64,000 bases of DNA from an uncultured Clostridium sp. (GCA_964625335.1 CAZVBE010000011.1:692-64691); one strand, 5' to 3'; positions 2,874 to 22,934 are shown, counted from the first letter of the stretch. Notes: generated by a model not told the origin, from the sequence alone. A program made the numbers and translations.

Positions 2874-3923
2874 TTATTTCTTTATTTCCCTCATCATGTT
2901 TTCGGCAAACAGTTTCGCTTCCTCCTCTATACCGGGAACGGCTGCTATTTCTCCCGGGTTGTTTGCAATAGCCATTATTGCGAAATAGGGGGGGAGTCTG
3001 AAGCTTTTGTTAATGTTCAGGGCGCCTATAAGCTGTCTGGCTATCGAATCGCTTCCCGAGTTGCCGGATACTATTACCGCAAACATAGTCTTGTCAAAAA
3101 ACTTCTTTCTCCTGTACAAAGCTGTGAGCCGGTTAATTACAGCCATAAGGTTTGCCGAAACCGAGTCGTTATAATTGGGGCATATCCATACCACCACGTC
3201 GGCCCTCTCAATTTCGGGCAGTATTTCCTCTGCCATCACTCCGCCGTAAAAACAGCTTTTTTGCCGGCTGTAGTGTTTACATGTCTTATAGGTGCATCCC
3301 TTGCAATCGAGTACCGTGCCGTTTTCCACATGCAGCTCTGCAATATCATCAAAGAACAGGTGTTTTTTTGTCATATTCCAGAGCATAAGGGTGTTTGACG
3401 TATTATGGGAGCTGGCATGGACAGCCAGTACCCTTGGTTTTTCTATTGTTGCAATATTATCCTGAAAAAGCCGTTCCCCCAGGTCCCGGCAAAGGCGGCT
3501 GCAAATCTCCTCAAGGGGCCGGTCGAGTTTTTTTTGCCAGGTCAGCAAGTTGGTAAGGCCTTCTGTTGCTTCAATAACCGGATTGCCGGGAAAACGGCAG
3601 CCCAAACGGTTTGCAAGAAAAATAATATTCTGCGCGGCACTTTTGGTAAAAAGGTCGTTGCTGCTGTGTATCAGGAGCGCTGCCGAGCAGCCCTGCAATG
3701 CATCCCTTCCCCTTTTGGACAGCTTGTCAAATAACTGCATAATGGGAATGCTAAATCCGGTCTGGTCGAGTTCTGCCGCAAACAGTATTTTTTTGCCCTG
3801 CAGGTCGGGAAGGCTGTCTGTACCGGTTAAGGTTCTTGCGGGAATACCGTCTGTAGCCGCTTTGACCATTACAGAGAGCCTATGGGACATAGGCCCGGGA
3901 GCAATAAGGTATACGGTTTTCAC
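2874..3923 (-). CDS. Flavodoxin-like / NADPH-dependent FMN reductase family iron-sulfur flavoprotein (two flavodoxin-like halves)
   Basis: The C-terminal half carries a Cys cluster (LDCKGCTYKTCKHY...C) and an FMN-reductase-like core typical of Isf-type flavoproteins. It overlaps the upstream gene by 4 bp (ATGA), giving an operon with 3920..5161 and 5175..10211. Confidence 0.6.
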   Translation of the reverse strand: MKTVYLIAPGPMSHRLSVMVKAATDGIPARTLTGTDSLPDLQGKKILFAAELDQTGFSIPIMQLFDKLSKRGRDALQGCSAALLIHSSNDLFTKSAAQNIIFLANRLGCRFPGNPVIEATEGLTNLLTWQKKLDRPLEEICSRLCRDLGERLFQDNIATIEKPRVLAVHASSHNTSNTLMLWNMTKKHLFFDDIAELHVENGTVLDCKGCTYKTCKHYSRQKSCFYGGVMAEEILPEIERADVVVWICPNYNDSVSANLMAVINRLTALYRRKKFFDKTMFAVIVSGNSGSDSIARQLIGALNINKSFRLPPYFAIMAIANNPGEIAAVPGIEEEAKLFAENMMREIKK

Positions 3924-5161
3924 AGCATTTCACCCAGCCTTTCGTAGGTTTTCTTAATCCTGTCATACAGAGGTGCGGGCAGATCAAGTGCTTCCACCTC
4001 TGTTCCCGAACCCAGCAGCCTGTTCCGGGAGCCCATATATACCCCGCCGATAAAGGTGGAACTGTAGTGCCACATGCCCTTTATCAGGGCTATAAGAGAC
4101 AGGCTGCCCGACGACAGGGCCGGTGCCACGTAGGGTTTATAACCCTCGCTGCGGACATACATATTGGCGTTACAGGCTTTTTCGGTAAGAAACAGCGACA
4201 GCTCCTCATTATAGTTTTTTATGCTGTCGGCGATAACAAGCCCTTCACCGTGGGGGCCAAAGGCCCTTCCTTCTTCGGAAAAATGGGCGCTTTCGGGAGA
4301 GCGCATGGCGAAATAGGCGGCCCGGGCATACATTACCCCCAGTCCGTAGCCCCTAATTTGTTCCGGAGCAAGTCCGCCAAAGTCTAAGCTGCCTTTGCTG
4401 TCGGTATTGCTCTCTGTAAAGGCTGTCTTGCATAACAAATCAACGGGATCCGAGACCACAGCAAAAACACCCTTGAAACCGGCCTCTCTGGCCTTTTTTG
4501 CGTAGGCGGCCACTATCGGTGAGTTGCCCTTAAGCTGCGCCATCCTGACATCCGCAGGGGCGCTTCCTACCGGCGGCACCCCCGCCGATATGCAAAAGAC
4601 AAACAGGTCGCAGTCAAAGACTTCATCCTCCTTTAGCATATAGACCGGCGGGCCGGCGACGCTGTTACCGGGGGCAAGTATCTGATTGGCTTCGTATTCC
4701 CATCTTTTCATATTGCTTAAGCTTCTGCTGTATATTCCAATGCCGGATATGCGGTTGCCCCCCAGCAGGCGCAGGCCGGTAAGCAGCATTCCGCCCACAT
4801 CTCCAAGCCCTGCTATGTTGACCCTCCATTTTCCCGGCAGGGCGCAGGCAGGTAGGTCACGCCAGTTCGGATATGTCGTATTTACCGATGTTACATTCCT
4901 TTTTTCTATGGCATCAAGCAGCCAGCCGGGCAGGTTGGAAGGCCCGTCTCTTCGTAACAGTATTTCTATTCCCTCTTTGTCCGGGAATGCCAGCGAGGGC
5001 CGGGATACACAAAAAGCTTTTCTGGAGCTTGACGGCTCCAGGCTGTTCAGGGTATAAACACTGCCCGTACAGTCCGATGCCCGGGCCTGGGATATTTCCT
5101 TTATCCCGGCGTATTTGTGTTTTGACACCAGGATTTTGCCCTGGCATTCATAATAGAACAT
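3920..5161 (-). CDS. L-lactate/malate dehydrogenase family protein with ~110-aa N-terminal extension
   Basis: It has a Rossmann GxGxxG (NIAGLGDVGGM), an NPVD-like motif (VVSDPVDLL) and a catalytic His region (FGPHGEGLVIADS, compare GEHGDS of LDH). Confidence 0.55.
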   Translation of the reverse strand: MFYYECQGKILVSKHKYAGIKEISQARASDCTGSVYTLNSLEPSSSRKAFCVSRPSLAFPDKEGIEILLRRDGPSNLPGWLLDAIEKRNVTSVNTTYPNWRDLPACALPGKWRVNIAGLGDVGGMLLTGLRLLGGNRISGIGIYSRSLSNMKRWEYEANQILAPGNSVAGPPVYMLKEDEVFDCDLFVFCISAGVPPVGSAPADVRMAQLKGNSPIVAAYAKKAREAGFKGVFAVVSDPVDLLCKTAFTESNTDSKGSLDFGGLAPEQIRGYGLGVMYARAAYFAMRSPESAHFSEEGRAFGPHGEGLVIADSIKNYNEELSLFLTEKACNANMYVRSEGYKPYVAPALSSGSLSLIALIKGMWHYSSTFIGGVYMGSRNRLLGSGTEVEALDLPAPLYDRIKKTYERLGEML

Positions 5162-5174
5162 GGGATTACCTCCG

Positions 5175-8100
5175 TCACTTAATTATGGTATGTTCAATGC
5201 GTTTTAACGCTTCCAGGTCATTAAGCAGGTAATGGGACGGATTTATGTTAATATCGTATCTTATATTGGGGCCGCGGTCGGGGCACCGGGGAGGGTTGAC
5301 CACTTCGCCCAAAAGGTCCAAAGTCAGACTACGTTCATTCATCACCTGGTATTCTTCCTCAAGGGCCGTCATTATATCAATGGAGTTATTGATACATGTT
5401 TCGGACAGCGCGAAAATTGACCTGTTGGATACATCGTTGATAAAGGTGGGGGAGGTATAGGGCAGGATCATATTTACCGAGGGTATAAGATTCCATTGGG
5501 GGTATATGCCCCTCCACAGGGTATCCCCGCCAAGGAAGGGATATAAGGCGCTTTCATAGAACCATGCCCGCAGCCTCGGAACAAAGTAGGCGCTGTCCAC
5601 ATCCCTGTTCTGGATATCCATTAGTTCCTTGCCCCGTCCGGACAGTATTCCTACTATGAATTTTTTAACCCTAATTCCCTCCCGCTTAAGTAAGGGATCG
5701 AGGGCTTTAAACCTGTAACCCTTATGCAGCAGATTGTCCACCAGTATTATTTGACGGTTGAAAGAGCGCAGCATTTTTATCTGGGTTTCCAAGTCCAGAT
5801 AATAGGGGAAGGGTCCAATTCTGAAGGATTTCATATGTGGCTGAAACAGCTTCTCGGTATGGAGGGATTTGGTCACCGTGTTTGGCACAATCTGATTGTT
5901 CAGGATAGTGCCAAAGGGAACGCACACAGAGGAGCCCAGCTTTCTGGGGACCGAAGGAACAGTATCCACTCCGTTTTCAGCGCAAATCTTTTTGGTGAGA
6001 TTTTGATTAAGCATTCCCATATCAAAGGACAGCAGCAGTTTCCCGGGGTACAGGCCGGAGAGGGCTCTTTGCAGCCTTTTCCTGGAACGGCAAACCGCCT
6101 GTTTTACATTGTCGTTATTCCTGAAGGATTCCTTAATTATCGTTGACACGTCCAGGTTAAGGGTGCAGGGGACGTTCATATCAACCAGGTATATGGGCTG
6201 GTGCTGATTGCCAAAATACAGCTTTTCAAACCCCTGCAGCTCAAGTACTTCTTCCACTGCCCGGGAAGAATAATCTTCAATGGTGTTTCTGAATACGGCA
6301 TAGTTGTAATCCTTTGCAAGGCAGTAGCAGAGGGTTTCGGTGAGAATTATCTGTTCAAGATTGTCATGGCCGCACTTTTGGTCGGTAAATATACCGTCTA
6401 TTACCACTATTCTGCCTACGGTATTATCCCTTATATACTCGGAGGCCATGTTGTTCTGGAACTCTTTGAAAAGCATGCTCAGACGCACCCAGTGAAATAG
6501 TGAAAAGCCCAGTATCCTGCCCCCGTTATTTTTTTCCTTAAGCAGCAAAACCCGGGGAGAGGACTTGTTTGAGAAGGCTGTAAGCTTTTTTTGCGCCTCC
6601 TTGCTGTCTGCAAACATTTGGGCAGAAAGTTTTTCAAGAAGTTCCTGCCTGGGGTTTTCAATAATTTCCATATCTATGGACACGGGGCTTACAGGGGCTT
6701 TGTACTGGGGCTCTCTCCTGTACAGGCCGCTCATGTATATATACTTCTGGGCCAGAGGGTCCACCAGCATTGATATATCCCTGTTTTGGTCAATATAGGT
6801 TCTGATTTGGGTTGAACTTATGTCTTCATATTGCGGAGGCAGTGACAGCGTTATTATCTCTCCTTCTATCCTGCCCATTTTTCTGTCCAGTTTTTTGTCG
6901 TCTTCTTCGGATGAAAGGGCGCTCCTTCTGTCAAATACTATGTGCGGGAAGGTGTGTATTGAATCCGGGCTTTTCTTATCCTTGTATCCTGAAGCGTGCA
7001 GTATCACATCGCTGCCTACGACTATGTATACTTCAGAGTTGGGGAAGCTTTCTCTTAGAGCCCGCAAATCCTCGGGATATGCAATATTTACGGGTATATC
7101 CTCGGGGTACAGGAATATACCGGGCTGATCGGCGATGGACATATTGATTATATTCCTGCGGGTAAGATTGGGCTGGGTTCTTTTGGACCATGAAAATTCA
7201 TCAATCGCAAGGAATACTTCAAAGCCAAGCCGGCGTATCTCCTTTGCAATCTCCTTGTGACCCAGCGAAAAGGGGTCAAAGGTACCCGGGAAAAAGGCTA
7301 TCTTTTGCGGGTGCTTAAGGTCTATGCTGCCGTAATGGAAGGTATAGGCGGATATGAACTTGTATATACTGTTTAACGCCGATGAATTGATAAACAGCAG
7401 CAGTTCACTGTCCCTGTTGTCCGGCAGCAGGGTCAGTATCTTTTTCGCGGTCCGCCTAAATATATGGTTTTTCTGCTCCATATCAAGGTATTCGGAGCCG
7501 TATATTTCCTTGCCAATTACACTGAAGGCAATCTGCCTGATCCGCTGGTCGTAATTGACCAGTCCGCCCAGTAAAATTCCCAGCATCTTGGCCAGCCTGC
7601 TCTCGTAAAACTCGTCGGCCTGGGGAAAAAGCTGCCTGTATTTAAGATAATAGGATAGGGTTATTCCTGCCGTTTTGAGTATGAGGGAGTTAATACCCAG
7701 TCCTGACTGTTTGGTTTTTTCAGTCAGGTAGTCGAGAATCTCGTCCAGCTCCACCGGCTGAAGGTAGAGTATCAACTGTCCCAGGTAATAAGGAATGTAC
7801 TTGGTGAACTGGTGGCCCTCAAGTTCCAGGGACCTGACCAGTTCCACCGCAATATCGTTTCTCTGCTCGAGGTTTAGGTGGGGGATTATGCGGATAAGCG
7901 CATCCCCTGCGCCAATACGCACATCTTCAACGGGGCTGACCTTTATAAGATTGCAAAAGTGCATGGCGGTATAAAAGGCGTTGTTCTTGTCATTGCTCAG
8001 GGTATGCTCCAGTAAAAGCTCCACCTGTATCTTTTTTGCAATCTTGCCGGTGGCAGTTTTAAGGTTGCTTAGAAAAATATCCGAAATACTGTCCAGGTCT

Positions 8101-10211
8101 TCACGGCAGTATGCATTGTACTTTTCGATTGTCGGGCGCCCAAGCCGAAGAAGCTGCGCTATCTTAAACTTAAGATAGTTTTCGGCAGGAAGGTCCGACC
8201 GGCTGGTATTCTGGGTTAACAGCTCTTTTAAACCTTGTGCCTGCCTGCAATCTGTTCCAAGGCTTAATATAAGGCTGCGGACAGCATCAAGGGCGGACAA
8301 ACGCAGACTGTTATCAGCTGAAAAAATTCTTTCAAGGGCGAAATCCGTCATTATTTCCAGCTGCTTTCTCTCGCAAGCGGCGGGGACGGATTTAAGCGTC
8401 TCCAGCAAATAGAATTGAGTCTGGAGTTCGGTTGCAGGGTATTTGGAATAGTACTTGCATAAAATCTCCGTATAACTATTTACCGTTTGCGGCTTGCATT
8501 GGGCAAAAAGGGAGGCTACCATTACGTTCAGACCGTATCCTATCCAGCTGCGATGAATGGGAATAATTTTATGGTCGGGGTCAATAAAGGCATCAAGATA
8601 CCTTTGCAGCAGCTGGCAGCTTGTAATGTCGGGAGTGTCCAGAACTGCATCCGGAGGCACTTCCTTGTGGTATTCCTCGTCAAAGGTTGCAATAAGCGTT
8701 CCTATCAGCTCGCTGCAGTGCCTTCTGATATCATCCTCCGGGTGGGTTAATTGCTCATACAAAAATTTTATGGTGATTAGTTTTTGTTTTTGCGTCAGAT
8801 AGGTGGAGTAGTCCTCGAATATGCGCAAATATTCCCGCAAGCTTTTCCAATTCTTTTCACTGCGGGCGGATTCCAGTATTGCGTTTAGTGAAAACTCGTT
8901 CCGAAGCCTGTACATGGTGTTAATGTTATGTCGTATTGACTGGTACTTTAAATTTTGTACCACCTGCTGCCCGTGCATCAGGGCATAATAACCCCTGGCC
9001 TTCGGGAGAGAGATTGGGGTATCCGCCCGGGTGTCGGGGTCTGTTCTTATACCCAGGCTTACCATATAGTCCTCAAAATCCTTGAGTTTTGCAAACACCT
9101 TTCTGTATCTCTTCTCCTTTTTATCATCCAGGTTATCCAGCTTCCCGAGTACTATATCAAAGGAATCCGCCAGGGAAAACATGTGCATCCTGCCCTTGTT
9201 TTTCCCGCAGGGGCTGGTTTTTACCCTGAAATCCGAATAGATGAGGATAAGGGATTCGAGGGACAGATTTTCGATTTCGAGGTCCCAGGTGGAATGATTT
9301 ATAGCAATATTTCTTATATATACAATACCGTGTTTTTTAAACCACTGGTCGGTATAATAATAGTGCAGGTAGGGGACTCTTTTCAGTTCGGCGCCTCTGC
9401 AGCCGTATTTTCCAATGTCGTGTCCTGCTGCGGCTCCCGAAACTCTTCCGAGGTCTGTAGGCAGCCCCAATTCCTTGAACTGACGAGCTATAAACAGGGA
9501 AAGGTAATGTACCCCGCATATATGGTCGAGGGTATTGTGACCCATAAGCTCTCCATTTAATTTCATCATTTCGTATATATATTCACTGTCAAAGGCTTTT
9601 AAGAAAAGCCGGTATTCATCAGGGTCTTCCAGCTCGGCCTGCTCACCCGGCGATAATGGTTCAAGGGGGTATTTGCTCTGCCAGGTGCCGTCATCCGAGG
9701 ATTGCTGCAGATTGCAAATTTTCCTGAGCATTTGCAGATACACGCTGCACGCACCGTCAAGGCTGTTGTTTAAGCTGGTTTCCAGCGCCTGGGGGAAGGA
9801 TTTGCCTATGGCATACTGGTATATGTATTCCAGCCAGTTGTCGGGGACGTCATTGCCGGCCAGTTCATTAAGCATATCCCTGCACAGCTCGAAGACTGCG
9901 CTGCAGCTGTAATCCCTGGTTTTGAGCATTTTGTCCATTTGTTTGACAAAGGAGGCTTTCTCAATATGTTTTTTTATGAACGCCCTGTTTATGGTATCGG
10001 GGTAGGCTTTTTTCAGCTCCAAAAGGGATGCGAAAAACTCTCTGTTAAGATCGGACAGCAAAGCGTTATCCATAGAAATACTCCTTTCTTTACCGGGACA
10101 GTTTTTATTCTCTCTTTGATTAGGGTTTTCTACACATAAGCGGCGTATTCCTCCACTGCAAAAAAAAGAATGGTCAGGAAAAAGCAGTGAAATGTGGAAA
10201 GGGAGTTTCAC
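5175..10211 (-). CDS. Giant 1678-aa multidomain protein: HD phosphohydrolase domain + helical (HEAT-like) repeats + HIGH-motif nucleotidyltransferase (NMNAT/NadD-like) + type I PRTase-like C-terminal domain
   Basis: The HD motif GAAAGHDIGKYG with the preceding HICGVH lies at about nt 9405-9440. The HIGH-motif nucleotidyltransferase signature KIAFFPGTFDPFSLGHKEIA lies at about nt 7270-7320. The PRPP-loop-like IILVDNLLHKGYRF...GIRVKKFIVGILSG lies at about nt 5700-5790. It is a single uninterrupted ORF with only a 14-nt gap to the downstream LDH-like gene. Confidence 0.6.
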   Translation of the reverse strand: MKLPFHISLLFPDHSFFCSGGIRRLCVENPNQRENKNCPGKERSISMDNALLSDLNREFFASLLELKKAYPDTINRAFIKKHIEKASFVKQMDKMLKTRDYSCSAVFELCRDMLNELAGNDVPDNWLEYIYQYAIGKSFPQALETSLNNSLDGACSVYLQMLRKICNLQQSSDDGTWQSKYPLEPLSPGEQAELEDPDEYRLFLKAFDSEYIYEMMKLNGELMGHNTLDHICGVHYLSLFIARQFKELGLPTDLGRVSGAAAGHDIGKYGCRGAELKRVPYLHYYYTDQWFKKHGIVYIRNIAINHSTWDLEIENLSLESLILIYSDFRVKTSPCGKNKGRMHMFSLADSFDIVLGKLDNLDDKKEKRYRKVFAKLKDFEDYMVSLGIRTDPDTRADTPISLPKARGYYALMHGQQVVQNLKYQSIRHNINTMYRLRNEFSLNAILESARSEKNWKSLREYLRIFEDYSTYLTQKQKLITIKFLYEQLTHPEDDIRRHCSELIGTLIATFDEEYHKEVPPDAVLDTPDITSCQLLQRYLDAFIDPDHKIIPIHRSWIGYGLNVMVASLFAQCKPQTVNSYTEILCKYYSKYPATELQTQFYLLETLKSVPAACERKQLEIMTDFALERIFSADNSLRLSALDAVRSLILSLGTDCRQAQGLKELLTQNTSRSDLPAENYLKFKIAQLLRLGRPTIEKYNAYCREDLDSISDIFLSNLKTATGKIAKKIQVELLLEHTLSNDKNNAFYTAMHFCNLIKVSPVEDVRIGAGDALIRIIPHLNLEQRNDIAVELVRSLELEGHQFTKYIPYYLGQLILYLQPVELDEILDYLTEKTKQSGLGINSLILKTAGITLSYYLKYRQLFPQADEFYESRLAKMLGILLGGLVNYDQRIRQIAFSVIGKEIYGSEYLDMEQKNHIFRRTAKKILTLLPDNRDSELLLFINSSALNSIYKFISAYTFHYGSIDLKHPQKIAFFPGTFDPFSLGHKEIAKEIRRLGFEVFLAIDEFSWSKRTQPNLTRRNIINMSIADQPGIFLYPEDIPVNIAYPEDLRALRESFPNSEVYIVVGSDVILHASGYKDKKSPDSIHTFPHIVFDRRSALSSEEDDKKLDRKMGRIEGEIITLSLPPQYEDISSTQIRTYIDQNRDISMLVDPLAQKYIYMSGLYRREPQYKAPVSPVSIDMEIIENPRQELLEKLSAQMFADSKEAQKKLTAFSNKSSPRVLLLKEKNNGGRILGFSLFHWVRLSMLFKEFQNNMASEYIRDNTVGRIVVIDGIFTDQKCGHDNLEQIILTETLCYCLAKDYNYAVFRNTIEDYSSRAVEEVLELQGFEKLYFGNQHQPIYLVDMNVPCTLNLDVSTIIKESFRNNDNVKQAVCRSRKRLQRALSGLYPGKLLLSFDMGMLNQNLTKKICAENGVDTVPSVPRKLGSSVCVPFGTILNNQIVPNTVTKSLHTEKLFQPHMKSFRIGPFPYYLDLETQIKMLRSFNRQIILVDNLLHKGYRFKALDPLLKREGIRVKKFIVGILSGRGKELMDIQNRDVDSAYFVPRLRAWFYESALYPFLGGDTLWRGIYPQWNLIPSVNMILPYTSPTFINDVSNRSIFALSETCINNSIDIMTALEEEYQVMNERSLTLDLLGEVVNPPRCPDRGPNIRYDININPSHYLLNDLEALKRIEHTIIK

Positions 10212-10456
10212 TTTTGCTTTTGCCTGCCAGTAGTGTCCGGTTATCCCCGGATTTTTTTGTATAAGCCAAAACGGGTTAACTCCACTTAAGGCTTTGTAAT
10301 ATCTGACGGTTTAAGGCCGCTTATGTTCCTGACCGAATTGGTATGCTCATAGGGTTGGGTGAAAAATCCGGTTAATCATGGTTAACGGTTTGGCAAAAAG
10401 AGTATAATATAACTATATGGAAAATTTATAACAAACCAATACAGAGGTGTAAGAAT

Positions 10457-11176
10457 ATGAAAAGCGGATACATAGTAATAGCGCTTGTTATAGCATTAGT
10501 AATAGCCTTGGCATATGTTTATATGAACCCTGCCGAAAATGGGGAAACCGGAGAAAACGGTAACGGATTACAGACCCCCCCGGAAGACCAAAACGACAGG
10601 GTTTCCCAGCAATTGGTTGAGATTTTTCCCGGAAGAACAGGTTACGAATGGTATTATTCAGGGTTTGCGGAATACAGCCATCACATGAGGCTGGATAATA
10701 TCTCGGGAAATACCGACACCCAGGAAATCCTGGTTTACGAGGTGTCCGGAGAGGTAGACGACCCTTCGGGCGGGGAAGGGCCGGGGGATTTCGGCCTTGA
10801 ACTGGAATACAGAATAACCTCGGACACTGTGACCGAGAGGATAATCCGCGGGGAAAAGCTTATCCATGTATTCGAGGAACTGCAGCTGTTAAGGCTGCCC
10901 CTTGAGGCCGGCAGCAGGTGGGAGCAGACGGTAAAAAGCGGCGAAGGGGAAGCTGACCTTACGGCCGAGATACTGTCGGCAGAAGCCGAGGAAGAGGAAG
11001 GCCCCATTGTCTACAGAGTGAGGTACACCGTTCCTATGGAGAATATGCCCGACGGGATTTACGTTGAGGAACGCGCATTTACCGAAGGGGTGGGTGTGAC
11101 TTACTATGCAAGGACCCTGGGCGAAGAGTACGATTTTATGTTTGAATATTTTATATTTGACCCTGACAAACAATGA
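10457..11176 (+). CDS. Hypothetical membrane-anchored acidic protein
   Basis: It has an N-terminal TM helix (IVIALVIALVIALAYVY), the remainder is acidic, and an RBS is present. It is transcribed divergently from the giant operon. Confidence 0.45.
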   Translation: MKSGYIVIALVIALVIALAYVYMNPAENGETGENGNGLQTPPEDQNDRVSQQLVEIFPGRTGYEWYYSGFAEYSHHMRLDNISGNTDTQEILVYEVSGEVDDPSGGEGPGDFGLELEYRITSDTVTERIIRGEKLIHVFEELQLLRLPLEAGSRWEQTVKSGEGEADLTAEILSAEAEEEEGPIVYRVRYTVPMENMPDGIYVEERAFTEGVGVTYYARTLGEEYDFMFEYFIFDPDKQ

Positions 11177-11238: not shown

Positions 11239-11312
11239 GCGGATATAGCTCAGTGGCAGAGCACCGGCTTCCCAAGCCGGTAATGCGGGTTCGATTCCCG
11301 TTATCCGCTCCA
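11239..11312 (+). tRNA. tRNA-Gly (anticodon CCC)
   Basis: The cloverleaf was folded by hand. The anticodon stem CCGGC/GCCGG closes loop TTCCCAA, the T-arm is GGGTTCGATTCCC, and the 3' end is CCA. Confidence 0.8.
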
Positions 11313-11318
11313 TCTTTC

Positions 11319-11396
11319 GGGGCGATAGCTCAGTTGGGAGAGCGCTACCTTGACATGGTAGAGGTTTCGCAGGTTCGATCCCTGTTCGCCCCACCA
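11319..11396 (+). tRNA. tRNA-Val (anticodon GAC)
   Basis: The acceptor stem is GGGGCGA/TCGCCCC. The anticodon stem CTACC/GGTAG closes loop TTGACAT, the T-arm is AGGTTCGATCC, and CCA is encoded. It lies 6 nt after tRNA-Gly. Confidence 0.8.
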
Positions 11397-12664: not shown

Positions 12665-12905
12665 TAAAATATCTTTTGGCAAAGGCAGCGAAGGGAAACA
12701 GTACGCGAGAGCTAATTTTCAGAGAGCCGGTGGCAGGTGTGAACCGGCATGCGGCCCGCCGGAATCCGTCCCGGAGCCTTAGAAGTGAAAATTAAGTAGT
12801 TTCTAACGGTTGACCCCGTTAAAGGTCATGAGTTGCCGGCAAGCTAAAATTAGGTGGTACCACGTGGGTAAATACCCCCGTCCTATAAGGGACGGGGTTT
12901 TTTTG
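12665..12905 (+). ncRNA. T-box riboswitch leader (probably Ser-responsive) upstream of serC-like/serA
   Basis: The conserved T-box sequence AAATTAGGTGGTACCACG is at 12846-12864. It is followed by the terminator hairpin cccccgtcctataagggacgggg plus TTTTTTT at 12876-12905. The leader is about 240 nt. Confidence 0.8.
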
Positions 12906-12979: not shown

Positions 12980-14128
12980 TTGAACAAGAGACTTATGACA
13001 CCGGGACCCACTCCTTTGCCTCCACAGGTAATAGAGGCTTTGGGGCAGCAGGTTTTGCACCACAGGACGAAGGAATATGCCGAAGTTTTTGAAAGGCTTA
13101 ACAGCGGCCTTAAATATGTTTTTGCCACCGATTATACGGTGGCCACCCTTACCGCCTCGGGCACCGGTGGAATGGAAGCCGCTGTCACCAACTGCTTTTG
13201 TCCGGGGGACAGGGTACTCCTTGTATCTTCAGGGGTGTTTTCGGAAAGGTTTTATGACATATGCCGGTGCATGGAACTTAAGGTGGAAAAGCTGGAAGTT
13301 CCGTGGGGGAAGGGCATTGGTGCACAGGAAGTGATGGCGCGGCTTGATAACGGCATAAAGGGGGTTATCGTCACCCATAATGAGACCTCAACCGCTGCCT
13401 GCAACGATATTGAGTCCATAGGCAAAGCCCTTGAGGGGACGGATGTTTTGTATATAGTGGATGCCGTCAGCTCCCTTGGGGGCATGGAGGTAAGGCCTGA
13501 AAAGTGGGGGATAGACATTGCGGTTACTTCCTCCCAGAAGGCTCTCATGTGCCCTCCCGGGCTTACCTTTCTGTCAATAAGCTCCAGGGCGATGGAAGCG
13601 GCGCGCAGAAACAAATCCCGCCGTCACTACTGGGACCTGTGCAAGGTGGTGGACTTTATGGGCAAACAACCTCCCCAGCACCCCTTTACCCCTGCGGTAA
13701 ACTTAGTCAGGGCTTCTCTTGAGGCGATTACGCTGATACAAAGGGAAGGGCTGGAAAACGTCTGGCGCAGGCATAGAAGGATGGGACATATGACCAGGAC
13801 GGGGGTTAAGGCGATGGGCCTTGGGCTGTTTGCCGGGGAAGGCAGCGCATCAGATACATTAACGGCGGTTAATGTTCCCGACGGTATAAATGCAGGCGAT
13901 ATTGTAAAGCGTATGGAGCAGGATTTCGGACTGGTTATTGCAGGGGGCAACAAAAACCTTAAGGGCAGGATAATAAGGATAGCCCATATGGGCTATATAT
14001 CCGAAAGGGATGTCCTGGATACCCTGCAGGGCCTTGAGCAGATTCTTATTGATTTGGGCTGTCCTGTCAATAGGGGCAGGGCATACACGGCGGCTAAACA
14101 AATAATTGACACAGGGGGCACAGTATAA
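12980..14128 (+). CDS. Class V aminotransferase (alanine-glyoxylate/serine-pyruvate aminotransferase family; likely phosphoserine aminotransferase role)
   Basis: It has the PLP-dependent class V fold and motifs, with the Schiff-base lysine region SSQKALMCPPG. It is directly followed by serA and preceded by a T-box. Confidence 0.8.
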   Translation: MNKRLMTPGPTPLPPQVIEALGQQVLHHRTKEYAEVFERLNSGLKYVFATDYTVATLTASGTGGMEAAVTNCFCPGDRVLLVSSGVFSERFYDICRCMELKVEKLEVPWGKGIGAQEVMARLDNGIKGVIVTHNETSTAACNDIESIGKALEGTDVLYIVDAVSSLGGMEVRPEKWGIDIAVTSSQKALMCPPGLTFLSISSRAMEAARRNKSRRHYWDLCKVVDFMGKQPPQHPFTPAVNLVRASLEAITLIQREGLENVWRRHRRMGHMTRTGVKAMGLGLFAGEGSASDTLTAVNVPDGINAGDIVKRMEQDFGLVIAGGNKNLKGRIIRIAHMGYISERDVLDTLQGLEQILIDLGCPVNRGRAYTAAKQIIDTGGTV

Positions 14129-15705
14129 TGAGGGTAATAGTAACTGAAAGGATTGCACAGACCGGAATAGATATACTCAAGAAAAAGGCGGATGTGGATG
14201 TAAGGCTTAAGATTGGAAGAGATGAACTGTTAAAAATAATAGAGGAATACCAGGGTATTATCGTGCGAAGTGCCACCATGGTGGACAGCGAACTGCTTGC
14301 AGCGGCCAAAAACCTGAAGGTTGTCGGCAGGGCGGGTAACGGTATAGACAATATAGACCTGGATGCGGCTACCCAGGCGGGGGTGGTTGTTGTTAATACT
14401 GCAGAAAGCAATTCGGTTTCCGCCGCAGAGCATACCATAGGCATGATGCTTGCGTCCTGTCGCAACACATGCAGCGCGAACCAGTATATTAAGTCGGGCA
14501 ACTGGGACCGCAGCCCGTTCAAAGGAAACGAACTGTACGGCAAGACGGTTGGCATAATAGGCCTTGGCAGGATTGGCGGACTGGTGGCTTCCAGGCTCCA
14601 GGCCTTTAATATGAAAACAATCGCCTATGACCCGTACATTCCCGGAGGCAGGTTTGAGCTTCTTGGGGTTGAAAAGATGGAAAAGCTGGAGGACTTGCTG
14701 GCCCGGGCGGATATAATTACCGTCCATACTCCCAAGACCGAGGAAACCATAGGTATGCTGGGGGATAAGGAATTTGAAATTATGAAGGACGGGGTGAGAC
14801 TTGTCAATTGCGCCAGGGGCGGCATTATCGGGGAAAAGGCGCTGCACAGGGCTCTTGAAAGCGGCAAGGCGGCCAGCGCAGCCCTTGATGTATTCGAACA
14901 GGAGCCCTGCCCGGACAATCCGCTGTTTAGCTTTGACAATACCGTTGTAACTCCCCATCTGGGTGCCGATACCTTGGAAGCACAGAACAAGGTGGGTATA
15001 AACATTGCAAACCAGGTGCTGGATGCCCTTGAGGGCAAGCTTGTTACAAACGCAGTCAATATGCCAAGCCTTCCGGACAAGGATATGGAATACTTGAAGC
15101 CTTACCTGCTGCTGGCGGAAAAGCTGGGCAGGCTTTACTACCAGCTGGAGAAAAGGCCCATAAGCAAAGTTGAGATTAAATACCGCGGCGGGATTGTGGA
15201 GCATAAGACAGGTCCCTTAACCCTTGCCTATCTTAAGGGCCTGCTTGAGCCGGTGGTAAAGGAAAGGGTTAACTATGTCAATGCAAAGCACCTGGCCAAG
15301 AGCAGGGGTATAAACGTGCTGGAGAGCCTGGACAGTAGCGCCAGCGAATATACAGACCTTATAGAGGTTAAGGTAAGCAACGGTCACAGCACCTTTACCA
15401 TGGCGGGGACTCTTTTCGGCATGAGGGAGCCCCGGATAGTGGAACTCAACGGTTATAAAATTGACATGGAACCGGCACCATACATGCTTCTAATAAGGAA
15501 CGAGGACAAGCCGGGGGTTATCGGCAGTATAGGTACCATTATGGGCGTAAGCAAAATAAACATTGCCACAATGAGGGTAAGCAGGAACTCAAAGGGAGGT
15601 AAGGCTCTTATGGTGCTGAATGTGGACGGTTTGGTGCCCAAGGATGTAATAGGCATGGTAAAGAAGGTGGATGGCATAACCGAAGTAAACTTTATAAAGC
15701 TGTAG
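14128..15705 (+). CDS. serA: D-3-phosphoglycerate dehydrogenase (with C-terminal ASB/ACT domains)
   Basis: It has the 2-hydroxyacid dehydrogenase NAD-binding motif GIIGLGRIGG and a catalytic His region. At 525 aa it has the long-form ACT tail. Confidence 0.9.
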   Translation: MRVIVTERIAQTGIDILKKKADVDVRLKIGRDELLKIIEEYQGIIVRSATMVDSELLAAAKNLKVVGRAGNGIDNIDLDAATQAGVVVVNTAESNSVSAAEHTIGMMLASCRNTCSANQYIKSGNWDRSPFKGNELYGKTVGIIGLGRIGGLVASRLQAFNMKTIAYDPYIPGGRFELLGVEKMEKLEDLLARADIITVHTPKTEETIGMLGDKEFEIMKDGVRLVNCARGGIIGEKALHRALESGKAASAALDVFEQEPCPDNPLFSFDNTVVTPHLGADTLEAQNKVGINIANQVLDALEGKLVTNAVNMPSLPDKDMEYLKPYLLLAEKLGRLYYQLEKRPISKVEIKYRGGIVEHKTGPLTLAYLKGLLEPVVKERVNYVNAKHLAKSRGINVLESLDSSASEYTDLIEVKVSNGHSTFTMAGTLFGMREPRIVELNGYKIDMEPAPYMLLIRNEDKPGVIGSIGTIMGVSKINIATMRVSRNSKGGKALMVLNVDGLVPKDVIGMVKKVDGITEVNFIKL

Positions 15706-17753: not shown

Positions 17754-17849
17754 TGTGTTGGCAGCAAAATAATATAATAAAGCTGGTATGTATAACAGGT
17801 GTCTTGTGACGGATGCCGGCTGCCGATAGTTTAATATTATGAATGACAA

Positions 17850-18075
17850 TGGATTGCAGGTGCCCCGATGGGGAGAATAGGGAACCGGGTGGAAATCCCG
17901 GGCGGACCCGCCACTGTAATGCTGAGCCTAACCTGAATGATGCCACTGGGTTTTTGTGCCCGGGAAGGTCCGGGAAGGGGCGATGAAGCGGAAGCCAGGA
18001 GACCTGCCTGCGATACCCATGCCGGTGGGTGACGGTAAAGCTCACAGTTCTGTTGAACTGTGGGCTTTTTGCTGT
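17850..18075 (+). ncRNA. Cobalamin (B12) riboswitch
   Basis: Conserved elements are present: GGTGCCCCGATGGGGA...GGAAACCCGGG..., the B12 box GAAGCCAGGAGACCTGCC, and a terminator hairpin cacagttctgttgaactgtgggc plus TTTTT. It lies immediately upstream of cobT. Confidence 0.8.
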
Positions 18076-18113: not shown

Positions 18114-19166
18114 TTGATGAAATTATTGGATAAGGTGAATAAGGGTATCAGACCGCCTGACCGGGACAAGATGAAAGAGGCAAGGGAAAGGGTGGATAAC
18201 CTGACAAAACCCCTGGGCAGCCTTGGAAGGCTGGAGGAAATCGCCGTACGGCTCTGTGGTATAACAGGCACTTTGGAACCCGAGATGAGCAAAAAAACGC
18301 TAATAGTTATGGCGGCGGATAACGGGGTTTACTGCGAAGGGGTTGCTGCCTATCCCCAGCAGGTGACCTCATTAATAGCCAGGGGCATGGTGGATGGGAC
18401 CGCAGGGGTGGCAGTGTTTGCACGGATGCTGGACGTCAACGTTAGGGTGATTGATATTGGCATGAAGGAGGCCTTTGGCTGTCAGGGTATAGTAAACAAA
18501 AAAATAAAGCCGGGCACCGCCAATATGGCAGAAGGCCCGGCCATGACAAGGAGTGAGGCGGTACAGGCAATACGAACGGGTATTGAGGCGGTATTTGAGG
18601 CGGCAGCTTCGGGAAGCCAAATAATAGCCACCGGGGAGGTGGGCATAGGGAATACAACCTCCAGCAGCGCAGTACTGGCTTCTCTGGAAGGACTGGACCC
18701 CGCCCAAACCACCGGAAGGGGAGCGGGCCTTGACCAAAGCGGCCTTGCCGGTAAAATTAAGGTGGTAGAAAGGGCCATCAGGGAAAACAGGCCGGACGCC
18801 GGTGACGCAATAGATGTCATCAGCAAGGTGGGCGGCCTTGACATAGCCGGCATGGCAGGCATTTACCTGGGAGCTGCATATATGAGAATACCTGTGGTAA
18901 TAGACGGTTTTATTTCATCGGTGGCTGCTCTGGCAGCGGCAAGGATTAATCCCCTTTCGACCGGATATATGTTTCCTTCCCATCTTTCCGCCGAAAAGGG
19001 CGGGAGTATTGTATTGGAGCGTCTGGGTCTAAAGCCCTACCTGGATTTGGATATGAGGCTGGGAGAGGGCAGCGGCGCCGTATTGGCCCTTTATATAATC
19101 GAAGCGGCGGCCAGGGCGATTACCCAAATGAAAACCTTCGACGAAATAGGAATAAAAAAGGTATAA
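18114..19166 (+). CDS. cobT: Nicotinate-nucleotide--dimethylbenzimidazole phosphoribosyltransferase
   Basis: CobT signature regions are present (LTKPLGSLGRLEE, EVGIGNTT, GGLDIAGMAG). Confidence 0.9.
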   Translation: MMKLLDKVNKGIRPPDRDKMKEARERVDNLTKPLGSLGRLEEIAVRLCGITGTLEPEMSKKTLIVMAADNGVYCEGVAAYPQQVTSLIARGMVDGTAGVAVFARMLDVNVRVIDIGMKEAFGCQGIVNKKIKPGTANMAEGPAMTRSEAVQAIRTGIEAVFEAAASGSQIIATGEVGIGNTTSSSAVLASLEGLDPAQTTGRGAGLDQSGLAGKIKVVERAIRENRPDAGDAIDVISKVGGLDIAGMAGIYLGAAYMRIPVVIDGFISSVAALAAARINPLSTGYMFPSHLSAEKGGSIVLERLGLKPYLDLDMRLGEGSGAVLALYIIEAAARAITQMKTFDEIGIKKV

Positions 19167-19211: not shown

Positions 19212-20963
19212 ATGAAGGTGCTGCTTACAACGCTGAATTCCAAATTCATTCATTCATCCCTTGCCCTTAGATACCTGATGGCGTATTGCAGGGACAAGCC
19301 CTATAACCTGGGGTTCAGGGAGTTTACCATAAACGATCCCATCCATACAATAACGGGGGAGATATACAGCGAGACCCCGGATATTGTCGCCTTCTCATGC
19401 TATATATGGAACATTACCGAAACACTGACACTTGCCCGCAGGATTAAACAGGTTAAGCGGGATACCGTTATTGTGCTCGGGGGGCCCGAGGTGTCCTACG
19501 ACGACTGTGCCCTGATGGAGCAGCATCCTTTTATTGATTTCATAGTGAGGGGAGAGGGGGAGGAGACCTTCAGGGAACTGCTGGAATACATTGTGGAAGG
19601 CAGAGGGCCAATAGATAATATCCGCGGGATAACCCACAGGTCCGCCGGCAGTGTTGTGAAAAACAAGGACAGGGAATTGATATGCGAACTTGATTCTATT
19701 CCTTTTCCCTATGGGTTTGACAGCGAACTTGAAAATAAAATAGTATACTATGAGGCATCGCGGGGCTGTCCCTTTCAGTGCCAGTACTGCCTTTCATCCA
19801 CCATTAAAGGAGTAAGGTTTTTTCCGGTTGAAAGGGTTAAAAAGGACCTGGACAGACTTATGGAACTTGGGGTAAAGCAGGTTAAGTTTGTGGACAGGAC
19901 ATTCAACTGCAACAGCAGCTTCTCCCGGGAAATATTTGGCCATTTGATTGAAAGGGGAGGCGATATAAATTTCCATTTTGAAATAACCGCCGACCTCCTG
20001 GATAAAGAACTCCTTAAGCTTCTTGATACCGCACCGCCGGGCCTTTTCCAGTTTGAGGTGGGCGTGCAGACCACCAACCCGCAGGTCTTGAAGGAAATAA
20101 GGAGAGATACCCGGCAGGAGGCGTTATTTCAAAACATAGGGGAGATTTCCAAGGGCAGAAATATCCATCAGCACCTTGACCTTATAGCAGGGCTGCCGGG
20201 GGAGGATATGGCCTCCTTTGCAAAGTCCTTTAACCATGTCTTTGGTTTGGCTCCGGATATGCTGCAGCTGGGGTTTCTGAAGCTGCTTAAAGGTTCGGGT
20301 ATAAGGGAGAGGGCACCGGAATACGGATATGTTTTTACAGCAGAGCCGCCCTATGAAGTCCTGGCCAATGATTGGATGGACTACGGGGATTTGCGCAGGT
20401 TAAAGCTTATCGAGCAGGTTTTGGAATACTACTATAACAGCCACGGTTTTGACAATACACTTAAATTTATACTATCCTGTTTTACCGGCGGCCCCTTTGA
20501 ATTTTTTAAGGACCTGTCCCGATACCTGGAGAATAAAGGGTTGCATCTTTTAAAGCACGGCCGCAGGGAGCTTTATTCGCTGCTTTATGATTACTGTGTG
20601 CACCGGTTACAAGCGCCGGAGGCGGCTGTTAATGAGCTGCTCAAACTGGATTTTCTGCTGACCGAAAGGGCCCTGAAGCTGCCGCCGCCGATTAACAGAA
20701 TAGAGACCCCGTTTTTCAAGCAAAGGTGCTTTGACTTCCTTGGCAGACCCGAAAATATTAGGTTTTATATTCCCGATTATGCGGAGCTTTCTCCAAAGCA
20801 AGTTTACAAGCTTGTACATTTTGAGGTTTTTGATTCCTGTATATGCGGGCATGTACCGGAAATTGAGAACAGGGACAATGAAAGGGAAGTAACCGTATTG
20901 TTTGATTACAGGAACAAAGACAGATTGAGACAAAAGGCCCGAATAATAATTGTGCAGCTTTGA
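19212..20963 (+). CDS. B12-binding domain-containing radical SAM protein (with DUF4080-like C-terminal region)
   Basis: An N-terminal B12-binding Rossmann region precedes the radical SAM cluster motif SRGCPFQCQYC. It sits downstream of the cobalamin riboswitch and cobT. Confidence 0.8.
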   Translation: MKVLLTTLNSKFIHSSLALRYLMAYCRDKPYNLGFREFTINDPIHTITGEIYSETPDIVAFSCYIWNITETLTLARRIKQVKRDTVIVLGGPEVSYDDCALMEQHPFIDFIVRGEGEETFRELLEYIVEGRGPIDNIRGITHRSAGSVVKNKDRELICELDSIPFPYGFDSELENKIVYYEASRGCPFQCQYCLSSTIKGVRFFPVERVKKDLDRLMELGVKQVKFVDRTFNCNSSFSREIFGHLIERGGDINFHFEITADLLDKELLKLLDTAPPGLFQFEVGVQTTNPQVLKEIRRDTRQEALFQNIGEISKGRNIHQHLDLIAGLPGEDMASFAKSFNHVFGLAPDMLQLGFLKLLKGSGIRERAPEYGYVFTAEPPYEVLANDWMDYGDLRRLKLIEQVLEYYYNSHGFDNTLKFILSCFTGGPFEFFKDLSRYLENKGLHLLKHGRRELYSLLYDYCVHRLQAPEAAVNELLKLDFLLTERALKLPPPINRIETPFFKQRCFDFLGRPENIRFYIPDYAELSPKQVYKLVHFEVFDSCICGHVPEIENRDNEREVTVLFDYRNKDRLRQKARIIIVQL

Positions 20964-22858: not shown

Positions 22859-22934
22859 GGGGATATGGCGAAGCTGGGATCGCGCCTGAATGGCATTCAG
22901 GAGGCCAGGGGTTCGAATCCCCTTATCTCCACCA
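22859..22934 (+). tRNA. tRNA-Ala (anticodon GGC)
   Basis: The 76-nt cloverleaf has a G3:U70 Ala identity pair. Anticodon loop ATGGCAT gives GGC, the T-arm is AGGGGTTCGAATCCCCT, and CCA is encoded. Confidence 0.85.

Follow-up and report, generated by a model that had tools for sequence, protein, structure and literature searches.

A three-gene operon of anaerobic bacteria that probably makes or controls a dinucleotide

What task could call for an HD phosphohydrolase, a nucleotidyltransferase and a phosphoribosyltransferase (PRTase)-like domain within a single chain, encoded next to a lactate dehydrogenase (LDH)-like protein and an Isf-like flavoprotein? The question is raised by three genes in a 64,000-nucleotide stretch of DNA from an uncultured Clostridium sp. 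(GCA_964625335.1 CAZVBE010000011.1:692-64691), referred to here as the window. From the domains that these genes encode we infer that the operon probably makes or controls a dinucleotide. A previous, sequence-only reading recognised in this set of domains no described pathway, and this still stands, as no curated family, PADLOC model, riboswitch or publication accounts for it. Databases name the giant protein only "cytidyltransferase", "NaMN adenylyltransferase" or "NadD", and homologues of the LDH-like protein carry only the names "lactate dehydrogenase" or "hypothetical". For all three proteins, the only curated NCBIfam or Pfam cut-offs passed were those of the generic CTP_transf_like and of FMN_red. 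A literature search found no paper accounting for the operon, which appears to be unstudied.

Gene layout and distribution of the operon

All three open reading frames lie on the minus strand (5175..10211, 3920..5161 and 2874..3923), exactly where the sequence-only reading had placed them, and all coordinates below refer to that strand. The first comprises 1678 codons if counted from a GTG, and this figure had been taken as the length of the giant protein. Its start is most likely the ATG at 10073, which gives a product of 1,632 aa. An AAGGAG Shine-Dalgarno sequence occurs at 10081-10086, ahead of this ATG, a recorded protein of 1632 aa (P0001) is 100% identical to the giant protein, and its homologues span 1620-1657 aa; the first 46 codons of the longer frame (10074..10211) are therefore a 5' leader, and the giant gene with its stop codon occupies 5175..10073.

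The LDH-like gene (3920..5161, 413 aa) follows after a spacer, CGGAGGTAATCCC (5162..5174), which contains GGAGG as the Shine-Dalgarno sequence of that gene and measures 13 nt, not the 14 nt given earlier. The flavoprotein gene (2874..3923, 349 aa) begins with a GTG that overlaps the preceding stop codon by 4 nt (GTGA), as had been described. The three genes are translationally coupled.

The operon is retained by many anaerobic bacteria. Across Clostridia and Atribacterota, 55 of the 61 loci that could be assessed carry the three genes side by side, and two more have an insertion; loss of this neighbourhood in related genomes had been named as a possible refutation, and the neighbourhood is conserved. 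Such recurrence is far beyond chance: about 216 clusters (50% identity) match the C-terminal half of the giant protein at E<=1e-30. In one lineage (L047) the LDH-like and Isf-like genes are fused into a single 807-aa open reading frame, and variants of the giant gene that lack the HD domain, found in some lineages, still precede both partner genes. Beyond these three, no conserved neighbour gene was found across the loci compared. A nitrogen-assimilation island (amtB and a three-piece glutamate synthase) interrupts the operon in two lineages, sigma-54 activator genes lie immediately upstream in two lineages, and a divergent version (L071) adjoins an AlaX-like tRNA-editing gene.

Modules of the giant protein

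The single frame had been described as a combination of four parts. The motifs then quoted are all present, but the protein contains six modules, including a GNAT-fold domain that had been missed: an N-terminal helical region, an HD phosphohydrolase domain, a HEAT-like solenoid, a NadD/NMNAT-like nucleotidyltransferase, the degenerate GNAT-fold domain and a type-I PRTase-like domain. The first (residues 1-150; 9624..10073) is all-helical in the AlphaFold2 model m705885bee265 and has no consistent match in Pfam or NCBIfam.

The HD-superfamily domain (residues ~151-345; 9039..9623) carries the signature HICGVH...GHDIGKYG, which the sequence-only reading had pointed out and which is invariant across 36-70 diverse relatives. 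Its motifs are H184..GVH, GHDIGK (217-222), HYYY (237-240), NHS.WDLE (259-266) and D281FR, and each of the metal-binding residues H184, H218-D219, H237, H260 and D281 is kept in all, or in at least 90%, of 36 diverse sequences. The Pfam HD model finds 29 of 36 relatives (best E 1.1e-6) but gives the window protein 13.6 bits, short of its cut-off of 22. Among NCBIfam models, the HD segments match the DVU_1551-family NTP transferase in 34/36 cases, TIGR00295 in 27/36 and YqeK (TIGR00488) in 1/36; the domain is nearer to the HD domains of the first two families than to YqeK.

Residues ~370-915 (7329..8966) form a HEAT/ARM-like alpha-solenoid of helix pairs in the AlphaFold2 model (pLDDT 87), with Foldseek matches to SF3B1, karyopherin-beta and CAND1 (E 7e-6 to 5e-4). 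The helical repeats proposed from the sequence (~600 aa in that reading) are borne out by the model over some 550 aa. The solenoid is not basic, its median pI across the family being ~6.2.

The nucleotidyltransferase domain (residues ~920-1125; 6699..7316) contains the motifs PGTFDPFSLGH (929-939), DEFSWSK (958-964), GSD (1020-1022) and ISSTQIR (1085-1091). In the first of these, of the (H/T)xGH type, the initial position is Ser in 54 and Thr in 16 of 70 sequences, and 69/70 have the final His; in the C-terminal ISSTxxR motif, S1086 and R1091 are kept in 70/70. The best sequence and structure matches are all NadD/NMNAT and the fold is that of NadD, so that the assignment to NadD/NMNAT-like HIGH nucleotidyltransferases is upheld. 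Pfam CTP_transf_like, matched in this domain, is the giant protein's sole hit above a curated cut-off, and the NadD equivalog models score well below theirs (NF000840, 51.3 bits against 150; TIGR00482, 45.3 against 112). The domain shares with NadD/NMNAT enzymes the HIGH-superfamily fold and the ISSTxxR motif; it differs in being embedded in a 1632-aa protein, in its identity of only ~20%, in the Ser or Thr that replaces the first His of HxGH, and in an invariant DEFSWSK where NadD has its PPHK substrate loop.

A NadD-type nucleotidyltransferase together with an HD phosphohydrolase recalls two known arrangements, the NadD-YqeK fusion (NCBIfam PRK07152) and the paired genes nadD and yqeK. In the giant protein, however, the order is reversed, with HD at the N-terminal side and the two domains ~700 residues apart. 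PRK07152 is matched at positions 1-186 of 361 only, that is, in its NadD half, and this match, along with the single YqeK hit among 36 HD segments, rules out the known fusion, an identity that had been put forward as a possible refutation.

The domain that follows (residues ~1133-1345; 6039..6677) has a GNAT fold of degenerate type. The acyl-CoA pyrophosphate-binding loop Q/RxxGxG/A (motif A) is absent, the equivalent segment being NLEQIILTE, without a Gly loop; no acetyltransferase Pfam match occurs in any of 36 members. It is the least conserved module of the protein.

The C-terminal domain (residues ~1346-1632; 5178..6038) resembles type-I (purine-type) PRTases, as the sequence-only reading proposed. 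Its PRPP-loop-like segment, IILVDNLLHKGYR (residues 1442-1454), is accompanied by conserved VPNTVTK.LHTEK and YPF.GGD motifs. Pfam Pribosyltran weakly matches 23 of 36 relatives (best E 5.4e-6), the window protein itself being unmatched, and weak NCBIfam matches were obtained to APRT (29/36, best E 5e-5), archaeal HPT (21/36), HGPRT (19/36) and PyrR (11/36); weak PDB profile matches to HGPRT, PRPP synthetase and OPRT fall at the PRPP loop. Like APRT, HGPRT and PyrR, the domain shows a hydrophobic strand, an acidic pair and a helix (ILVDD...) that align with the loops of HGPRT, PRPP synthetase and OPRT. The strand before the Asp is invariant, and the acidic pair is conserved as D1446 (70/70) and D1447 (68/70). 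The Asn noticed earlier in place of the usual Asp is indeed present in the window protein (VDN), but it is peculiar to its lineage. A strongly conserved PNTVTK.LHTEK loop lies where purine PRTases have their catalytic flexible loop. Unlike type-I PRTases, the domain spans ~290 aa with long insertions and has a conserved K-G-x-R (KGYR) in place of the phosphate-binding TGxT, and no member of the family reaches a curated cut-off. The AlphaFold2 model of this region has a pLDDT of ~85-95 over much of its length, with dips to ~60-75.

The dehydrogenase and flavoprotein partners

The assignment of the second gene to the LDH/malate dehydrogenase superfamily, with an extension of ~110 aa at the N-terminus of its product, was confirmed by profile alignment with LDHs in the PDB. 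Like L-lactate and malate dehydrogenases (Ldh_1), the protein has a Rossmann GxGxxG motif, here GLGDVGG, and invariant R206, R280 and H304 equivalent to Arg109, Arg171 and His195 (residue-level alignment with 4q3n). The His195-Asp168 dyad is not preserved, an invariant Met277 standing at the position of Asp168. Further departures from Ldh_1 are SDPVD where LDHs have SNPVD (Asp for Asn140), a Pro-rich substrate loop that is two residues longer and lacks Gln102 or Arg102, and the extension itself, which occurs in some lineages only. Ldh_1_N reaches 22.1 bits against a cut-off of 27, Ldh_1_C is unmatched in Pfam, and NCBIfam cut-offs are also missed.

The third gene encodes the flavodoxin-like protein with a Cys cluster that had been described from the sequence. 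An N-terminal domain (1-160) precedes an FMN_red domain (163-316; Pfam E 1.5e-19, 70.5 bits against a cut-off of 24), which was found in 34/34 relatives and in which four Cys residues (C207-x2-C210-x4-C215-x8-C224) are invariant (56/56). The protein had no sequence match in the PDB. This compact motif, ~45 residues into the domain, lies where Isf, an FMN_red-family protein of methanogens and clostridia, carries its cluster. The spacing in Isf is CX2CX2CX4-7C, whereas the putative [4Fe-4S] motif of the operon protein reads CX2CX4CX8C, and the additional N-terminal domain of ~160 aa distinguishes it further.

Possible functions of the operon

The likeliest scheme, which we put forward tentatively, is that the PRTase-like and then the NadD-like domain build an adenine dinucleotide. 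The operon would be a self-contained module of nucleotide metabolism, in which the PRTase-like domain would convert PRPP and a base or other nucleophile into a 5'-phosphoribosyl mononucleotide, and the NadD/NMNAT-like domain would join this to ATP to yield an X-adenine dinucleotide; the two-step logic would be that of NAD synthesis, but with a purine-type PRTase. The HD domain, dispensable in some lineages, may act on the product or a precursor by cleaving a phosphoester or pyrophosphate bond, and so serve turnover, proofreading or maturation. The solenoid could act as a scaffold for the catalytic domains and perhaps also for both partner proteins, while those partners, the LDH-like enzyme and the Isf-like FMN/Fe-S protein, may work as a redox pair in making, modifying or using either the base or the dinucleotide. 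The first suggestion, that the operon makes or turns over an NAD-like dinucleotide or a nucleotide signal, is consistent with the conserved PRTase-like, NadD-like and HD motifs. In favour of dinucleotide synthesis, the nucleotidyltransferase and PRTase-like domains occur together in every architectural variant, even in the forms of 1,050-1,300 aa from which the HD module or the greater part of the GNAT domain is missing. Several points count against it: the NadD equivalog, HD, Pribosyltran and Ldh_1_N scores fall below cut-off; Ser or Thr replaces the first His of HxGH; KGYR replaces TGxT, and VDN is found in the window protein; NadD and GNAT structures fill the best 50-60 matches of the fold searches, with no PRTase among these; and a PRTase-like domain need not be an enzyme, those of PyrR and PurR serving as sensors. 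The scheme gives the GNAT-fold domain no role, and a 550-aa solenoid is hard to place in a small-molecule pathway. Some genomes also hold a second giant-gene copy without partner genes (L029), a further point against it.

It is rather unlikely, on our estimate, that the giant protein is instead a bifunctional controller of a second messenger or alarmone. Its NadD-like domain would make, and its HD domain degrade, a dinucleotide or dinucleoside polyphosphate, on the model of RelA/SpoT or of paired NadD and YqeK. Sensing might fall to the PRTase-like domain (PRPP or a nucleotide) and to the GNAT fold (an acyl-CoA-like ligand), and the redox pair might report the redox state. In RelA/SpoT and GlnD a single chain holds an HD domain and a transferase of nucleotidyl or pyrophosphoryl groups, and the giant protein likewise joins an HD hydrolase to a nucleotidyltransferase, both with conserved catalytic residues, which might suggest paired synthesis and breakdown. 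A poorly conserved GNAT fold without its acyl-CoA loop is what a ligand-binding or regulatory module would look like, and the PyrR-type matches (11/36) and the upstream sigma-54 activators point the same way. However, the transferases of RelA/SpoT and GlnD have a Pol-beta fold, whereas that of the giant protein is HIGH/Rossmann-like, and it has no TGS or ACT domain. Several complete variants lack HD yet keep the triad, so the invariant core does not consist of opposed synthesis and hydrolysis; YqeK is matched by only one of 36 members; and the PRTase-like loops are conserved so strongly that catalysis is suggested over sensing.

Less probable still is a specialised enzyme of NAD(P) salvage or homeostasis, in which a true NaMN/NMN adenylyltransferase would be assisted by extra domains that phosphoribosylate nicotinate or nicotinamide and trim products, with NAD(P)H-linked partners. 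The best nucleotidyltransferase matches, all NadD/NMNAT and including the NMNAT-specific ISSTxxR, and the adjoining Rossmann dehydrogenase gene would agree with this. Against it are the NadD equivalog score of 51 against 150 bits, the replacement of the PPHK loop, and the two giant-gene copies of some genomes. Moreover, the matched fold is type-I and purine-like, whereas the nicotinate, nicotinamide and quinolinate PRTases known so far are type II. No canonical nadD was found within the DNA stretches examined.

We consider it doubtful that the giant protein modifies macromolecules, its solenoid docking a protein or RNA, possibly the LDH-like or Isf-like partner, for adenylylation by the nucleotidyltransferase and removal by HD in the manner of GlnE/GlnD. 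A HEAT-like solenoid of this size is typical of protein-protein scaffolds, and the amtB-glutamate synthase island and the AlaX-like neighbour could be read likewise, but each of these neighbourhood clues is confined to one or two lineages. The substrates of NadD-like enzymes of the HIGH superfamily are small molecules, and we know of no protein-AMPylating member among these enzymes; the solenoid is not basic, and a catalytic-looking PRTase domain would be left without explanation. An anti-phage defence system is excluded by the lack of any match to PADLOC models for all three proteins.

Regions upstream of the operon resemble ordinary sigma-A promoters, no riboswitch was found there, and 10040-10470 gave no Rfam match. 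Such promoters without a riboswitch, together with the absence of a defence match, suggest that the operon belongs to housekeeping metabolism.

Operon layout and gene neighbourhood

The operon lies on the minus strand at 5175..10211, 3920..5161 and 2874..3923, where the sequence-only reading had placed it, and encodes in this order a giant multidomain protein, an LDH-like dehydrogenase and an FMN_red flavoprotein. The giant protein had been given 1678 aa, the length of the mechanical reading frame from GTG 10211. The gene product is instead almost certainly 1632 aa from ATG 10073, because AAGGAG occurs upstream of this codon at 10081-10086, a database protein with 100% identity has 1632 aa, and the best 120 homologues have 1620-1657 aa. 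The spacer between the TGA of the giant gene and the ATG of the LDH-like gene, earlier counted as 14 nt, is 13 nt (CGGAGGTAATCCC), and the 4-nt overlap that follows was read correctly, the stop of the LDH-like gene sharing GTGA with the GTG start of the flavoprotein gene. Within the operon no intrinsic terminator is conspicuous, and no riboswitch or leader was detected upstream by Rfam, either at gathering score or at E<=1. Upstream sites for Rex, TnrA/GlnR, sigma-54, NiaR-like regulators, cre, CodY, Fur and NrtR were not enriched over shuffles in 68 loci.

Neighbourhood conservation, which the earlier reading had left to be checked, was examined in 77 loci, one genome per species, drawn from numerous clostridial families and from eight or more MAGs of Atribacterota. 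Among the 61 loci with enough downstream DNA to be assessed, 55 carried the contiguous triad in the same gene order, two had it interrupted by an insertion of about 5.4 kb, two missed the flavoprotein gene, and two showed the giant gene alone. One of these solitary genes (L029, Marinisporobacter balticus) is a second paralogue, a complete triad being present elsewhere in the genome (L081); Crassaminicella thermophila also has two paralogues of the giant gene (P0016/P0091). The triad occurs in cultured hosts as well, for example in the complete genome of Clostridium formicaceticum. In a Peptococcaceae MAG (L047:14917-17340) the LDH-like protein and the flavoprotein are joined in one 807-aa ORF by an Ala/Glu-rich linker, a natural fusion of the partner proteins unless it stems from an assembly error.

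Clustering of all flanking ORFs revealed no other conserved neighbour of the triad; the commonest family, an ABC ATPase, was found in 13 loci only, at varying positions. An insertion between the giant and LDH-like genes (L005:14966-20169, L006:7918-13236) contains amtB, encoding an ammonium transporter, on the opposite strand, together with a three-piece archaeal-type glutamate synthase (GATase_2, Glu_synthase with Fer4, and GXGXG). In two Eubacterium/Ihubacter-type loci (L052:7749-9830, L068:7559-9763) a gene for a sigma-54 enhancer-binding protein runs up to the giant gene's start or overlaps it, and regulators similar to sigma-54 activators lie less than 10 kb from the giant gene in six more. 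A 342-aa RlmN-like radical SAM protein is encoded downstream of the operon, in the same orientation and about 2.5 kb past the end of the giant gene, in seven loci (L015, L017, L020, L021, L026, L028, L042), most of them labelled Atribacterota or Candidatus Atribacteria; of these, L021 has no flavoprotein gene. At a single locus (L084:13884-18088) the triad is directly followed by genes for two proteins that resemble 2-hydroxyacyl-CoA dehydratase activases, one of 976 aa (BcrAD_BadFG/DUF2229) and one of 423 aa (DUF2229). All these lineage-specific neighbours are too sporadic to be given weight. The 348-aa product of a downstream gene in L071 was considered as a divergent LDH-like protein and rejected (hhalign probability 0.8%).

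Two records deserve separate mention. In the MAG locus L060:4713-7071 the giant gene is fragmented across frames and the end of the LDH-like gene is garbled, so that this copy of the giant gene could be a pseudogene or the result of assembly errors. L055, a record named Lutibacter sp. B2 after a genus of Bacteroidota, holds a triad of typical clostridial kind (53% identity); it probably reflects contamination by a foreign contig or an assembly under the wrong label.

Around the operon of the window, a divergent 239-aa gene without Pfam match (10457-11176) is conserved beside it only in the closest five or six relatives, and is followed by tRNA-Gly(CCC) and tRNA-Val(GAC) side by side (11239-11396). 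On its 3' side the operon is flanked by a TraX-family gene (1904-2833) and then by the gene for a large catalase whose C-terminal domain is of the DJ-1/PfpI type, truncated by the window edge (26-1660); both are conserved in the closest relatives only.

Architecture of the giant protein

Only the middle of the giant protein is recognised by curated libraries. Pfam CTP_transf_like matches with an E value of 1.5e-9 at residues 973-1138 of the 1678-aa ORF, equivalent to 927-1092 of the 1632-aa protein, and several NCBIfam NadD equivalogs match with E down to 1e-13, scoring 51 bits against cut-offs of 112-315. The nucleotidyltransferase domain has a NadD-like fold and a predicted NadD-like action but fails the curated NadD cut-offs. 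The public names "cytidyltransferase" and "NadD" for the giant protein are almost certainly misleading. Profile searches of the PDB with the whole protein and its N- and C-terminal parts retrieved NadD and PPAT, and weakly the HD-domain structures 1xx7 and 4mcw and HGPRT.

Two AlphaFold2 models, each built from a 45-sequence alignment, covered residues 1-930 (pLDDT 87, pTM 0.84) and 905-1632 (pLDDT 82, pTM 0.83). The N-terminal model is helical throughout except for one hairpin, and the fold matches listed for it were HEAT/ARM solenoids only (SF3B1, karyopherins, CAND1), with no HD fold among them; those listed for the C-terminal model were NadD and GNAT only, with no PRTase fold. Since these families saturated the listed matches, 36 diverse relatives were scanned domain by domain at lax thresholds. 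Within the N-terminal 350 residues, Pfam HD was found in 29 of the 36 (best E 1.1e-6), the NCBIfam DVU_1551-family NTP transferase in 34 and TIGR00295 in 27. The YqeK model matched only one relative and PRK07152 only with its NadD half, and the known NadD-YqeK fusion was rejected as the identity of the protein. The C-terminal 288 residues matched, at the same lax thresholds, Pfam Pribosyltran in 23/36 relatives (best E 5.4e-6) and the NCBIfam models for adenine PRTase (29/36), archaeal HPT (21/36), HGPRT (19/36) and PyrR (11/36), and in PDB profile alignments ILVDDLLHKGYR falls on the PRPP loop of HGPRT, of PRPP synthetase and of OPRT. An acetyltransferase match was obtained for the GNAT-fold segment in none of the 36; unlike GNAT acyltransferases it has no Q/RxxGxG/A cofactor loop, and conservation is lower here than anywhere else in the protein.

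The protein is thus divided into an N-helical region (residues 1-150), an HD domain (151-345), a solenoid (about 370-915), a NadD-like nucleotidyltransferase (920-1125), a degenerate GNAT fold (1133-1345) and a type-I PRTase-like domain (1346-1632). The earlier remark that this domain set fits no described pathway is supported, as regards both the architecture and its unrecognised status. A full-text search of the literature, of incomplete coverage, found no description of the giant-protein family or of the triad.

Conservation of catalytic residues was judged on 70 sequences with identity down to 33%. Invariant or nearly so are H184, H218-D219, H237, H260 and D281 of the HD domain; G930, F932-D933-P934-F935, H939, DEFSWSK, G1020-x-D1022, S1086-S1087 and R1091 of the nucleotidyltransferase; and D1446, K1451-G1452, R1454, PNTVTK.LHTEK and YPF.GGD of the PRTase-like domain. 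The Asn noticed earlier in the PRPP loop, in place of its second acidic residue, is indeed present in the window, and is an oddity of its lineage, as 68 of the 70 sequences have Asp there.

Partner proteins and the invariant core

The 413-aa dehydrogenase belongs to the LDH/MDH superfamily, with scores below threshold, and its homologues bear only the public names "lactate dehydrogenase" or "hypothetical". When the family profile was aligned to solved LDHs, a GLGDVGG motif was found and Arg109, Arg171 and His195 corresponded to R206, R280 and H304. Unlike LDH/MDH enzymes, it lacks the defining Asp168, the position being occupied by an invariant Met277, and SDPVD replaces SNPVD. Clostridiaceae-like and Atribacterota versions carry the N-terminal extension of about 110 aa, which is absent from the versions of about 324 aa of Lachnospiraceae and Anaerovoracaceae. 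The 349-aa flavoprotein begins with a domain without family assignment and continues with an FMN_red domain (E 1.5e-19) that bears an invariant C207-x2-C210-x4-C215-x8-C224 motif, by which it resembles Isf-type Fe-S flavoproteins; a profile search of the PDB found no sequence relatives of it.

A search with the C-terminal half of the giant protein against 1.84 billion representative proteins gave 216 clusters at E<=1e-30, most members having 1550-1680 aa. Some apparently complete relatives of 1050-1310 aa lack the N-helical region and HD domain, and in a few the GNAT domain is largely missing too. Three such HD-less variants, of 1079-1266 aa and apparently complete, were studied in context (L084:8001-13855, L085:731-6250, L086:129-5113); in two of them the solenoid is shorter or the GNAT domain reduced as well. 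An overlapping LDH-like gene follows in all three, with an FMN_red gene after it in L084 and L085; in L086 the contig stops within the next gene, for which there is no Pfam call. The HD module is therefore accessory, and the invariant core consists of the solenoid, the nucleotidyltransferase, the PRTase-like domain and the redox pair.

Possible functions

Known relatives of the NMNAT-like adenylyltransferase adenylylate the product of a PRTase. The obligate pairing of PRTase-like and NMNAT-like domains with preserved active-site motifs suggests, tentatively but as the best-supported reading, a two-step assembly line for an adenine dinucleotide. The PRTase-like domain would convert a base and PRPP to a mononucleotide, which the NMNAT-like domain would join with ATP; the HD domain might hydrolyse the dinucleotide or its precursor, the solenoid would serve as scaffold, and the LDH-like and Isf-like couple may make, modify or use a redox-active part. 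From its sequence the operon is classified as putative PRTase plus NMNAT-type dinucleotide synthesis of undescribed architecture with dedicated redox partners. It is a doubtful further step that the triad makes and uses an undescribed dinucleotide, a non-NAD redox cofactor or signal that a purine-type PRTase and an NMNAT-like adenylyltransferase would build, in strictly anaerobic Clostridia and Atribacterota, with the aberrant LDH-like protein (Asp168 to Met) and the Isf-like protein as dedicated redox partners. Family HMMs found no canonical nadD or stand-alone PRTase in the window and 86 fetched loci.

The giant protein might alternatively make and break a nucleotide signal, carrying sensor domains for its control; this unlikely proposal is weakened by the variants without HD module. 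That it is a specialised NAD salvage enzyme seems quite improbable: the NadD scores are sub-threshold, the NadD substrate loop is replaced, and the PRTase-like domain is type-I, not type-II. A macromolecule-modifying machine docking its target on the solenoid is very unlikely; the solenoid is not basic, which leaves an RNA-binding role for it unsupported. No PADLOC model matches, and an anti-phage defence system was rejected.

A protein of this size and cost, with catalytic residues that do not vary, is encoded in hundreds of sequence clusters from many genera of anaerobes, among them lineages of the gut, rumen, sediment and subsurface. Should the PRTase-to-adenylyltransferase reading prove true, the operon would mark a previously unrecognised branch of nucleotide or cofactor metabolism, equipped with a dehydrogenase and an Fe-S flavoprotein of its own. 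Should it prove wrong, the operon would remain a clearly delimited object of study, comprising a six-module enzyme, two partners and natural HD-less and fused variants.

Elsewhere in the window, a T-box leader (12679-12888, 121 bits) lies upstream of an Aminotran_5 gene (12980-14128) and a phosphoglycerate dehydrogenase-like gene (14128-15705), which look like a serine-biosynthesis operon. A cobalamin riboswitch (17841-18025, 123 bits) precedes a CobT-like DBI_PRT gene (18114-19166) and a gene for a B12-binding radical SAM protein (19212-20963), and a tRNA-Ala(GGC) is found at 22859-22934.
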